Below, in pieces: positions 40,278 through 62,543 of a stretch of 64,000 nt of DNA (position 1 is its first letter; each line of letters starts with the position of its first letter). Origin of the DNA: Promethearchaeota archaeon (GTDB lineage: Archaea; Asgardarchaeota; Lokiarchaeia; Sigyniarchaeales; SOKP01); assembly GCA_019058245.1 (NCBI GenBank), contig JAHPZJ010000028.1, positions 64,001-128,000 of the forward strand. Reading direction: 5' to 3'. The translations under genes and the position numbers were made by a program. Below the pieces are notes generated by a model, which saw only the letters and a list, made by a program, of their open reading frames with translations, searched no databases and was not told where the DNA came from.

Positions 40278-40667
40278 ATGCAAGAAATTAAAGATTTTGA
40301 TACTGAAGCAAAAAAACGTATGAAATGGATTACCTACAAAGAAAATGAAATTCTTCTTGATGATTATACAAATATTTATCCTGAACAATTTGCACCCCTC
40401 ATCAAAAGGATTACTGATCTTACATTTCAATCAGGAAAGAAAGATATTTTATTAATAGTTGATGTAACAGGAGCATATGCTAATAAAGAAGCTGTTGATG
40501 CATTTGTTGAAGCAAGTAAGAAATCAAAACCACTCTTAAAAAAAACTGCTGTTGTTGGAATAACGGGTGTAAAAAAAATATTTCTAAATATTGTTAATAA
40601 ATTCTCAGGAGTAAATGCTAAAGCAGTAGCCTCAATGGAAGATGCTAAAGAATGGTTATTAAAATAG
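40278..40667 (+). CDS. STAS/SEC14 (SpoIIAA-like) domain protein
   Basis: LLIVDVT, KTAVVG, EDAKEWL. Confidence 0.65.
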   Translation: MQEIKDFDTEAKKRMKWITYKENEILLDDYTNIYPEQFAPLIKRITDLTFQSGKKDILLIVDVTGAYANKEAVDAFVEASKKSKPLLKKTAVVGITGVKKIFLNIVNKFSGVNAKAVASMEDAKEWLLK

Positions 40668-40778: not shown

Positions 40779-43190
40779 TTAGGTTCTACAAAGTCTTTTT
40801 AAAAGAGTTGGATCTATTATCTCTTTTGGTTTCCATCCCTTCTCTTTTAGATATGCCATTATCTCATCTTTCATATTAATAGGAATATCCGCTTCCAGAC
40901 GGACAAATTTCTCTAAATCATTAGGAAATTCAACACCCTTATATTTTCTCTCTAAATCGATCCAATGAGATAATTTTATCATTCGTCCTTTAGAATTATC
41001 TGCAGGTCTTAAAGCTAATTTGGCGACTAAACAGATAGCTTGTTCTATACTTTCCGCGGTTGTTAATAGATGTTCAGGTCCAGGTCCCACTAGATGATCG
41101 GCTGTTCCATCTCGAGCATTGAATACTTTCCAAACATCTTCATCATCGGAGCGTCCAATATACATTCTTCTATATTCCGCGGCATGAGGGCCACAAACAG
41201 CTGGTACACCTAAACCATTTGCCATACTTGCAATACTTGCAGCTTTTTGAGACATAGCACCCCATGCAACACCAACTGCTCCAACTCTGTTTAAAACATA
41301 GTCAGCTATTTCTTCAAAATTACCACGTAATGGTCTTCGGGCGAAGATATTAGCAACTTTAATTGCAGCTCCAGTAATATGAGGATTACTTACGCAACTT
41401 CCTACATTTACTAAACCGCCTCTATCAAAATCACCCGGAAATCTATCATATAATGTTTTTCCATCTTCATCCTTTACAAGGCCAATATCCATTGCTCCAC
41501 AGCCTGAAACTACAACTATATAATTTCTTGTTAGAAATTCTTCAGCCATTTTATATAGTTCTTGAATTTCATGAGCATAACTCGCACATCCAATTATTGC
41601 AACAATTCCAGGGATTTCTCCTAAGACAATAGGGGCACCTACATTCCTAATTTCGGTGTCCATAATAGGTCCACGCCCTACTCTACAGTTGAATTTCTCA
41701 TTTCTAATCTGTTCTCTAGCGGCATATTGTAATAAAGTTAAAGGAGATACACCTTTCATACAGTCTCCTTCACATCGTCCACATCCCAAACACTCATCGA
41801 ATGCTCCTGCTAATACTGAGAAATCCCCATCTTTAGCTAATTTTACTCCTTCCACAAGTGGTAAATCATTTGGACAATTTCTTTGACAATTTCCACAGCC
41901 ATTACAATTCATCGCCATATCAATGCAACCTTGTTCATCAGGAACTCCACTTTTTGCTTTTCTAATTGGTTTGACTTTTATTGCAGTTTCAGCTGCTACT
42001 GCACCAGCTTTTATTGGATCTAAAATAAGGACACCGGGTTCCTTTCCACTTACTAAATCATCAACAATTTCATTGATAGGATCAGTGGTTCTATCAGGTA
42101 AACCGCTCATATTCTTTTCATTTGTAGCAATAAATGGAGCTCCAATCAACTGGGCTTGCTCAAATGATCTTAGATTTACACATTGTTCATCAACCATTAC
42201 TACATCTGGAAATCCCGATCGAATCACATGAAGCTGTCTTGACATTGATCCCACAATCTTAGCACCATCATAGTATCTCGTTAAATCATGGGCAGTACAA
42301 CAAATTGCTCCAACATCTACCTTTTCATCTATACCTTTTTCTCTTATATAATCAACTAATTCGACTCCAGGGGCAACGTTATGTCCAATCATCAAAATAA
42401 CTGCCTTACTCGTATCTAATGTTCCCATACCAAGTTCTACAATAGGAACATTAGGATCTCCCATAGGAAATCCGTACGCGGCAATTTGAACAGCATCAGA
42501 AATTTCCATACCTACAGAATCTGCTAATCCTGCTAAAAAGCTTTTTGATTCATAATCTAAATAAGAACTCTCTTGTCCTGTATGTCCCGCCGCTAATAAG
42601 TGTGTTATTGTAAAATGCACCCACTCCATAGCGGTTTCTAAATCTTCTAGGGTTTCAGGTTTCATACCGACAACTAATCTTGTGTGAGGCATCTCAACGG
42701 CTATATTATTCCCAAAATTAATTGGTACATTGCCATACTTTTCTTTTAACCAATGTAATAGATGATCTCCGTGGGCAGAATGGCACGCAGCGCCTATACA
42801 GCAGGCAATCTCTACTATCCGACTCTGTTGTGTCTCCATATTGATCCCGCATGCACCTGTTCGCCCCTTGGAAAGATTACATTTCCCATATGTGCATAAA
42901 CAGCACATATCACATTTGTCGTATATGCACAGATCAATTGTGCATATATATCGGCATGTAAAAAGGTTTGTATCTTTCCATCATTTTGAAAAACCAATTG
43001 CGTAGGGTTGGAATATGGGGCATAGGATTTTACCCTTGAGAAGTCATGCTTCAATCAAGTGAGGTCCCATAGGCTCCCATTCCGTCTCATCTCCGAAAGA
43101 AACTTTACCAGTAGTAAGTTCGAATCCTTTAATCGTTCCGAGAGGACCTTTATATTCATCTATTTTAACTTTAGCTCCTCTTTTTTCCAT
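40779..43190 (-). CDS. cdhA: CO dehydrogenase/acetyl-CoA synthase alpha subunit, predicted 3 exons (43190-43061, 43028-42950, 42915-40779), 781 aa spliced
   Basis: Spliced N-terminus MEKRG...[18 protein letters not shown]...[32 protein letters not shown], DEQC, two CxxCxxCxxxC, GSCVSN, WGAMSQKA. Protein identity is secure; exon structure is inferred. Confidence 0.93.
42916..42949 (-). other. Putative 34-nt BHB-type mRNA intron 2 in cdhA
   Basis: 10-bp hairpin UAUAUGCACA/UGUGCAUAUA, bulges AU|A and AA|A around GCCG:CGAC; removal restores the frame (MP-I-CDMCC). Confidence 0.8.
43029..43060 (-). other. Putative 32-nt BHB-type mRNA intron 1 in cdhA
   Basis: Hairpin CUUGA(UU)GAAG/CUUCUCAAG, bulges UC|A and AA|A around GACC:GGUA; removal restores the frame (MGP-H-PMP). 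Confidence 0.78.
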
Positions 43191-43423: not shown

Positions 43424-44422
43424 TTAAGAAGAGAGTAAATTAAAAATCTCAGGAATTATATTATCAATATTGAAATTAGTTTTAACAGATGTAAATAAAA
43501 AATTCCACTTTCTGTTTTTTATTTTATTAAAATTGTAGAAATTAAAAAGTTCTTCTTTTAATAGTGTAAGTTGTTCATTATTACCTTTATCTGAATACTT
43601 AACTAAATCAGTTTTATTTCCTATAATAAGTAAGGGTGTTCCATTTAATTCATCCTTGTTCAATACATTCCAAAACTCTTTTCTTGATTCTTCAAACCTT
43701 CTTTGATTAGCTACATCAATCATATAGACGATAATGTTGGAATCTTGAAGTCCTTTTAACCATTTTGATCTAAATGATTTTTGTCCAGGCATATCCCATA
43801 CCGCAAGTAAGCCTTTTTCTTTTACAGGAATATATTCAATGTTGAATTTTCTCGTTGGAACAAAAAAATTATCATTAAATTCACCAGTTTTCAAACGTCT
43901 TACTAAACTGGATTTTCCCACTTCATCAATTCCAAAAAGAAAGATTTTGAAAAATGTTTCAGTCTGATAATAATATTCAATATCAAGAGGTTTCTCGATT
44001 ACTTCGTCACCAAACCTTCTAATATCAATGAACATAGAAATTAGTAAATTTTCAACTTCAATTTCATCATTAAAGGAGTACCCATTATTATCACTCAAAA
44101 TTTCAGTCAGCAATTCCTCTGTTATTTCTTTATAGTCATAAGGATTATCTTCATTGTCAAAAATTAACCCAATTATAATGTTTCCATTAATACAAGAAGA
44201 ATAAATATTCATTTCATTAGTAAATTGAGCAATTGGTTCAGCAATTTTGAATTGATTTATATTCGTTTTTTGGCTGCCTTCTTCCTTTTCATGATTTTTT
44301 ATAATCTCATTTATCAGTAATTTATCATTAATACTGATAATTTCATTTGGGTAACTATAAATATTTAGATCCTCTAAATCCTGAATTTCGTTTCCTTTAA
44401 ATAAAAATATATTAAGTAGCAA
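43424..44422 (-). CDS. Arf-like small GTPase with N-terminal longin-like domain
   Basis: GIDEVGKSS, PTRKFN, WDMPGQ..FR..W, GNKTD, TSVK. Confidence 0.88.
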   Translation of the reverse strand: MLLNIFLFKGNEIQDLEDLNIYSYPNEIISINDKLLINEIIKNHEKEEGSQKTNINQFKIAEPIAQFTNEMNIYSSCINGNIIIGLIFDNEDNPYDYKEITEELLTEILSDNNGYSFNDEIEVENLLISMFIDIRRFGDEVIEKPLDIEYYYQTETFFKIFLFGIDEVGKSSLVRRLKTGEFNDNFFVPTRKFNIEYIPVKEKGLLAVWDMPGQKSFRSKWLKGLQDSNIIVYMIDVANQRRFEESRKEFWNVLNKDELNGTPLLIIGNKTDLVKYSDKGNNEQLTLLKEELFNFYNFNKIKNRKWNFLFTSVKTNFNIDNIIPEIFNLLSS

Positions 44423-61949: not shown

Positions 61950-62543
61950 ATGAACCAAGTAAACAATGAACAAATCTCTCTTGATAATATTGATTTACCA
62001 GATAAAATCCCAGCAAAATTTATCAATTCAAGAGTTATCGTTTTCAATCCTTTATATGCTTCATATTTATATGTTATTAAAGGTTTTTTTGGTTCTCCTT
62101 TAGGTATAAATAAACCGAGATTAGAATATTTTTCAAAACCAAGTGAATTGTCTCTAATAGAAGCGTATTATTTATTGGAACGTGATGACATTTCTATTTA
62201 TGATATAAAAGAGAATAAGGTTTTAGAACCGAAGGAATTCTATGAGATTGCTAATAAAATTCATCATAAATTTGCAGAGAAATATGTTATTTACAAAGAT
62301 CTAAGGGAAAAAGGATATATACCGAGACCTGGTCTAAAATTTGGAGCGGATTTTGTCGTGTATAAAAAGGGACCTGGTATAGAACATTCACTTTTTATGG
62401 TTCATGTATTACCTCATGATTCTGAAATAACTGCTATTGATATGGTTAGAGCTGGTAGATTAGCAACATCAGTGAGAAAAAAATTTGTTATAGCAAACCC
62501 ACTAACTAAATCATATTATTTCTTTGAATGGTTTAAGCCATAA
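61950..62543 (+). CDS. endA: tRNA-splicing endonuclease catalytic subunit
   Basis: LSLIEAYYL, VIYKDLREKGY, GLKFGADFVVY, GP..EHS, RLATSVRKK (Tyr-His-Lys triad). Confidence 0.95.
   Translation: MNQVNNEQISLDNIDLPDKIPAKFINSRVIVFNPLYASYLYVIKGFFGSPLGINKPRLEYFSKPSELSLIEAYYLLERDDISIYDIKENKVLEPKEFYEIANKIHHKFAEKYVIYKDLREKGYIPRPGLKFGADFVVYKKGPGIEHSLFMVHVLPHDSEITAIDMVRAGRLATSVRKKFVIANPLTKSYYFFEWFKP

Follow-up and report, generated by a model that had tools for sequence, protein, structure and literature searches.

Two short inserts in a lokiarchaeal cdhA gene as probable relaxed bulge-helix-bulge introns of an archaeal mRNA

Introduction

In 2002, Watanabe reportedly described an intron in the cbf5 pre-mRNA of archaea. 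Our literature search, outside which most subscription journals lay, found bulge-helix-bulge (BHB) introns in archaeal mRNA only in cbf5 and in the 5′ untranslated region (UTR) of Haloferax HVO_1309. Here we analyze cdhA, a Wood-Ljungdahl gene on the minus strand of a 64,000-nucleotide stretch of DNA (the window; positions 64,001 to 128,000 of contig JAHPZJ010000028.1, assembly GCA_019058245.1) from a Promethearchaeota archaeon of the Lokiarchaeia. Its coding sequence (CDS) is interrupted by two inserts of 32 and 34 nucleotides (nt), which are with high probability relaxed BHB-type pre-mRNA introns spliced by EndA and RtcB.

The closest described system is the cbf5 gene of Desulfurococcales and Sulfolobales (Yokobori 2009, PMC2738675). 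Like cdhA, it carries a short BHB intron within an archaeal coding sequence, with an often relaxed motif (the usual state in cbf5), a cut, predicted for cdhA, that a hetero-oligomeric EndA makes behind the second base of the bulge, a lineage-specific presence or absence, and a tendency to be misread by gene callers. However, the intron of cbf5 is the only one in that gene, occupies one conserved site, derives from a single gain and was shown by cDNA to be spliced, whereas the cdhA of an Asgard host is a core metabolic gene with two introns per mRNA, at least seven sites in the gene family and unrelated inserts at the same or neighboring sites, and we infer its splicing from comparison. Introns in genes other than cbf5 have been predicted but remain unconfirmed (PMC2738675).

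Two other systems are related. The Haloferax HVO_1309 mRNA (PMC7714728) is also a substrate of the splicing endonuclease with a short (46 nt) intron, but this intron is single and lies in the 5′ UTR, leaving the reading frame unaffected. Asgard archaea also have non-canonical tRNA genes with several introns (PMC11291895; bioRxiv 10.64898/2026.10.13.758758), which share with cdhA the motif, a similar intron size, repeated independent gains and the two EndA paralogs present in most genomes. These papers deal with tRNA genes only (“mRNA” is absent from preprint 10.64898/2026.10.13.758758), whereas the host in our case is an mRNA. The mRNA introns sought in a paper on DPANN archaea (PMC8784108) were not found there.

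Results

Removal of two inserts restores the cdhA reading frame

The host genome, G000, is a metagenome bin that is 76% complete; coordinates below are positions in the window. The called open reading frame (ORF; 40779-42908, minus strand, 709 amino acids) corresponds to CdhA from Met73 onward, the start as gene callers place it. With 980.8 bits against the TIGR00314 (cdhA) profile (cut-off 781.3), it belongs to the CdhA family, although it spans profile positions 65-761 only, whereas an insert-free relative spans 5-761. The missing N-terminus was found upstream of the called ORF, in two other frames, which divides the locus as follows:

43061..43190, minus strand: cdhA exon 1, 130 nt from the ATG at 43190, comprising codons 1-43 and one further base; N-terminus as in insert-free relatives
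43029..43060, minus strand: putative intron 1, 32 nt, after CDS nt 130, with an in-frame stop inside
42950..43028, minus strand: cdhA exon 2, 79 nt, under purifying selection
42916..42949, minus strand: putative intron 2, 34 nt, after CDS nt 209, with an in-frame stop inside
40779..42915, minus strand: cdhA exon 3, 2137 nt including the stop; its first base precedes Cys71 by one

Without nucleotides 43060-43029 and 42949-42916, cdhA is a frame of 2346 nt and 781 amino acids with zero internal stops; the unspliced frame meets a stop within intron 1, at codon 49. The closest cdhA, that of G024, whose protein is 97.8% identical, has no inserts, measures exactly 2346 nt and encodes the same residues over both junctions, so that the spliced G000 protein and the insert-free G024 protein have the same length. 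Splicing also restores Cys71 and, with it, completes the N-terminal D-cluster motif Cys-x3-Cys. This motif is typical of CdhA (PMC13240472), and its cysteines would be the D-cluster ligands. Near-identical CdhA proteins carry the source names Promethearchaeota or Ca. Lokiarchaeia. A first-pass annotation of the window, made from its letters, had proposed the three reading pieces, the two inserts, their junctions, the 2346-nt frame and the insert layouts described below, all of which we reproduced; it had also anticipated that gene callers would truncate the gene, as they do with the 709-residue ORF.

Both inserts are predicted to form relaxed BHB motifs

Intron 1 consists of 1 nt, a 25-nt hairpin (43059-43035), a 4-nt central strand (43034-43031) and 2 nt (1+25+4+2). 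Intron 2 is built in the same way (1+27+4+2), from 1 nt, a 27-nt hairpin with a 10-bp stem (42948-42922), a 4-nt central strand (42921-42918) and 2 nt. In both inserts, the central strand pairs with exon bases −6 to −3, and the layout is that expected if both bulges of a BHB motif are cut behind their second base. The central strand of intron 1 forms 3/4 pairs with exon 43066-43063 (G.A mismatch) and that of intron 2 forms 3/4 pairs with exon 42955-42952 (C.A mismatch). In intron 2, the outer helix between the two exons is shifted by one base. The G000 introns thus depart from the canonical arrangement, in which all four central base pairs form and the two outer helices are in register. The inner stems of both inserts have strong predicted pairing (0.74-1.0), and the predicted equilibrium pairing of the central pairs is low (0-0.42). 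Given the central-helix mismatches, the shifted outer helix and this low central pairing, both inserts are, as predicted from their sequences, relaxed rather than canonical BHB motifs and fit the relaxed class described for cbf5 (PMC2738675). The 3-nt bulge, 4-bp helix, 3-nt bulge geometry claimed in the first-pass annotation thus stands as a layout but not as a perfect central helix.

Other identities were rejected. Group I and group II self-splicing introns have a core of hundreds of nucleotides, against 29-34 nt for the inserts found here and in relatives, and there was no Rfam match up to E=1. Remnants of miniature inverted-repeat transposable elements or insertion sequences would show target-site duplication and several genomic copies, against a junction slide of 0-3 nt and a single copy of each intron in G000. 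The two introns showed no similarity to the rest of G000, including its tRNA introns. An apparent end motif shared by some introns was dropped, as it had 36 genome matches and no enrichment.

The inserts are present in DNA

Because the genome is a metagenome bin, an assembly artefact had to be considered. Both inserts are covered, with 0 differences, by contigs of runs X1, X2 and X6. The assembly may derive from X1 and X2, yet these belong to two studies, and X6 carries no source flag. With identical inserts in three runs and two studies, and homologs of intron 2 in four other genomes (G002, G016, G022 and G032), the artefact is refuted and we consider its probability negligible.

At the positions of the two inserts, run X9 has contigs from other organisms that are shorter by a net 32 and 34 nt and thus represent insert-free DNA alleles. 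These alleles, together with the imperfect central helices, could be taken to mean that a nuclease other than EndA removes the inserts from the RNA, or that some members of the population excise them from their DNA. However, all contigs identical to G000 keep the inserts, target-site repeats are absent (junction slide 0-3 nt) and the EndA cut rule fits 25 of the 26 inserts of the family described below, so that there is very little chance that this explanation is correct.

Related inserts occur at seven sites in the family

We surveyed the 122 genomes of the Lokiarchaeia family with a cdhA; the insert counts are lower bounds, as mostly the first 112 codons were screened. Eighteen genomes (~15%) carry 26 inserts, 23 of them distinct, with lengths of 29-34 nt. 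They occupy seven sites, after CDS nt 130, 208, 209, 216, 228, 343 and 510, five of which fall within nt 130-228. A further 30-nt insert at site 208 was found in two JGI contigs. As the first-pass annotation had proposed that a comparison across Lokiarchaeia might reveal, relatives are either exactly insert-free or carry other BHB-shaped inserts, and the stems covary. Twelve genomes with interrupted cdhA belong to genus g1. In genus g28 (39/42 genomes with cdhA), an interrupted cdhA 5′ region was not seen, except for two weak partial matches (G125 and G151). Outside the family, 10 genomes had a cdhA match, and all of them have this region of the gene intact.

For each insert, the best cut was chosen by pairing alone among 17 offsets and compared with the window preferred by protein homology. 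The BHB-best cut fell inside the homology-preferred window for 25/26 inserts; the sole exception (G109, site 510) agrees with its homolog in G022. All family inserts have at least 3/4 pairs in the central helix, and 16/26 have 4/4 when G-U pairs are included. In the predicted register, 89% of positions pair in central helices and 92% in inner stems, versus 26-49% and 32-54%, respectively, in controls slid by 1-3 nt and 50% and 47% when strands are combined across sites. The 3′ bulge starts with A in all 23 distinct inserts. This first-position A is the family rule; the earlier claim that all four bulges end in A is correct for the two G000 inserts but does not extend to the family.

Compensatory change was observed and is strongest in the intron stem, the central helix varying on one side only within a site. 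Seven stem pairs have changed on both sides in the site-228 introns (0/500 shuffles; every slid control lower) and two in the site-209 introns, counts that are inflated by kinship and, at site 228, by the possibility that not all inserts are homologous.

Every insert is a hairpin, usually with a stop shortly past the junction, which would also suit translational bypassing or frameshifting, where the ribosome hops each hairpin as in T4 gene 60. However, matched take-off and landing codons occur in only 3/23 distinct inserts and never for intron 2, and the lone synonymous pair at intron 1 would turn His44 into Asn. Ribosome hopping also leaves the central-helix pairing and the invariant 3′-bulge A unexplained, and we find it scarcely credible.

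The exons upstream of the stops are conserved

Exons 1 and 2, which lie upstream of or between the stops, have far fewer nonsynonymous (pN) than synonymous (pS) differences in every interrupted copy. For G000 compared with its nearest relative, pS is 0.50 and pN 0.045; between G005 and G094, both interrupted, there are 6 silent and 0 replacement changes. Comparison of these copies indicates that purifying selection acts on the exons that precede the stops. In G005, G084, G103 and G157 (98-100% complete), the sole cdhA found is interrupted, and cdhC and cdhE-like genes are present.

These results bear on the view that cdhA is a pseudogene inactivated by hairpin DNA inserts, or that its product is only the 709-residue protein from Met73. 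The stops inside the inserts, the decaying interrupted copy of G022, the products of 709 and 723 residues output by gene callers, the incompleteness of G000 and the dispensability of D-cluster cysteines in some carbon monoxide dehydrogenases (PMC13240472) are in line with this view. It is highly unlikely all the same: in addition to the low pN, 17/18 interrupted copies have no stop beyond those of the inserts, the inserts at sites 228, 343 and 510 sit downstream of Met73 and would disrupt the short ORF too, and the layout of 1 nt, hairpin, 4 nt and 2 nt with exon pairing is not expected of random inserts.

Splicing enzymes and proposed mechanism

The candidate nuclease, acting in trans, is encoded in the window itself:

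61950..62543, plus strand: endA, catalytic (alpha) subunit, best match Aeropyrum EndA

Its triad Y138/H146/K177 aligns to Aeropyrum Y125/H133/K164, R170 to R157 and W194 to W183. Its loop residues K55/R57 align to K44/R46 of the Aeropyrum loop that was shown to give activity on relaxed substrates (PMC3241643). G000 encodes two EndA paralogs and RtcB. In the second paralog, encoded on contig C20, the catalytic His appears to be absent from the sequence, and this protein is likely the structural subunit. By alignment, the host therefore appears to have an EndA of the broad-specificity type as well as an RNA ligase.

We propose that cdhA is transcribed with both inserts and that each insert folds as a hairpin and base-pairs through its 3′ tail with the end of the preceding exon, creating two relaxed BHB motifs. 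An (alpha-beta)2 EndA would cut both motifs, RtcB would ligate the exons, and the full-length protein would then be produced. The cdhA mRNA very probably needs two splices.

Several observations weigh against this interpretation. Each insert has a central-helix mismatch and low predicted central pairing, as described above. No spliced cdhA RNA or peptide was observed. Two exact searches for the predicted junctions in JGI contigs, a set from which records of this genome may be missing, gave no match, and none of the cluster members or top 120 homologs was a full-length protein identical to a spliced product. Neither cdhD nor cdhE was found in the 76% complete bin, and the genome may have a second, intact cdhA. 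Finally, some interrupted copies do appear to decay. The G022 cdhA (L038), with two introns, has lost Cys71 and contains one stop and assembly gaps; judged from its sequence it is degenerate, possibly a pseudogene derived from an intron-bearing allele.

All comparative tests capable of refuting splicing nevertheless favored it. The inserts are in the DNA, their removal restores exactly the length and junctions of the G024 frame, the BHB register coincides with homology, the stems covary, the upstream exons are conserved and the enzymes are encoded; together these argue for splicing. The multi-intron splicing of a Wood-Ljungdahl gene put forward in the first-pass annotation thus gains comparative support, with its RNA-level steps being those that we propose.

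History of the introns

Interrupted copies are scattered across the cdhA tree, often as sisters of insert-free copies. The G000 gene is a mosaic: nt 1-209 differ by ~17% from G024 and the remainder by 5-10%. Intron 2 is 32/34 identical (94%) between G000 and G032, whereas the flanking cdhA exons differ by 16-28%. Next to the intron 2 junction, the two genomes agree over 14 nt on the upstream side and 16 nt on the downstream side, where their own nearest relatives differ, and the intron is absent from the nearest relative of each. The near-identity of the introns within divergent exons suggests an exchange between diverged alleles by short-tract recombination. As vertical conservation of introns is also seen (mevalonate kinase, below), ancient presence followed by repeated exact loss could explain the same pattern. 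An unrelated 31-nt insert occupies site 130 in G028, where G000 has intron 1, and several unrelated inserts occur at site 208; these cases point to repeated gains at sites where the exon may supply half of the motif. A CCG proline codon is found in 5/5 carriers of the intron at site 209 versus 4/59 others.

Candidate inserts in other genes

Three further G000 genes contain inserts of the same BHB layout:

C10:121094-121063: ahcY insert, 32 nt, absent in G024
C15:8315-8345: mevalonate kinase insert, 31 nt, common to G024, G006 and G086, absent in G065
C25:73734-73704: elf1 insert, 31 nt, absent in G024

In G084, cdhA, cdhC and cdhD all carry candidate inserts: two BHB-shaped ones of 30 and 29 nt in cdhC (L106, acetyl-CoA synthase beta subunit) and one of 30 nt in cdhD (L113). 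A 30-nt candidate lies at the same site of the G005 cdhD (L114), where it is in frame without a stop, so that the unspliced message would read through; a second insert of 36 nt follows further on.

A homology-free genome scan, based on the BHB pattern and frame restoration, gave no excess over wrong-frame controls; it listed the ahcY insert but missed the tandem cdhA pair and cannot count introns. When G000 was compared with a sample of G024 DNA (~290 kb aligned, 84% identical), a comparison blind to shared introns in which alignments above 9 kb were skipped, the two cdhA inserts were the only BHB-like differences.

ARAGORN found just 19 tRNA genes in G000, 14 of them with a called intron and several implausible, which is consistent with multi-intron tRNAs escaping the caller.

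Surroundings of cdhA

The cdhA gene is solitary, flanked by a gene with a small-GTPase domain (43424-44422) and by a gene for 129 amino acids (40278-40667). The G000 cdhB and cdhC genes are intact and lie together on contig C30, away from cdhA. A near-perfect 16-bp palindrome (43365-43350, minus strand), ~165 nt upstream of the cdhA start, is kept upstream of cdhA in most relatives and is likely a transcription-factor operator.

Discussion

In the literature searched, splicing inside archaeal coding sequences is an exception confined to a single gene, cbf5. In cdhA, the message for a Wood-Ljungdahl enzyme appears to require two splices. The proposed introns work in the cbf5 manner and agree with archaeal BHB introns in every feature compared except the perfect canonical helix; two introns per message, the many sites and the core metabolic host set them apart.

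In eukaryotes, the XBP1 and HAC1 mRNAs undergo IRE1/RtcB splicing, which resembles the process proposed for cdhA in the protein-only excision of a short frame-shifting intron followed by joining with a tRNA ligase, but differs in its nuclease and motif and in being a regulated stress switch. The cdhA introns are not spliceosomal and say nothing direct on the origin of the spliceosome.

For the Lokiarchaeia family as a whole, we see an even chance that micro-introns spliced by the endonuclease form an active, recurrently gained class of mRNA introns, with multi-intron messages of core genes, a hotspot in the 5′ region of cdhA and short-tract exchange. If splicing is confirmed, tRNA-type splicing would routinely take part in expressing the genes of these Asgard archaea, and their annotation would be systematically wrong, with truncated proteins, false pseudogenes and false metabolic gaps. 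The gain and loss of mRNA introns would also become open to study with clean present and absent alleles. If the family-wide interpretation is true, archaeal relatives of eukaryotes would possess an exon-intron gene architecture that is free of the spliceosome.
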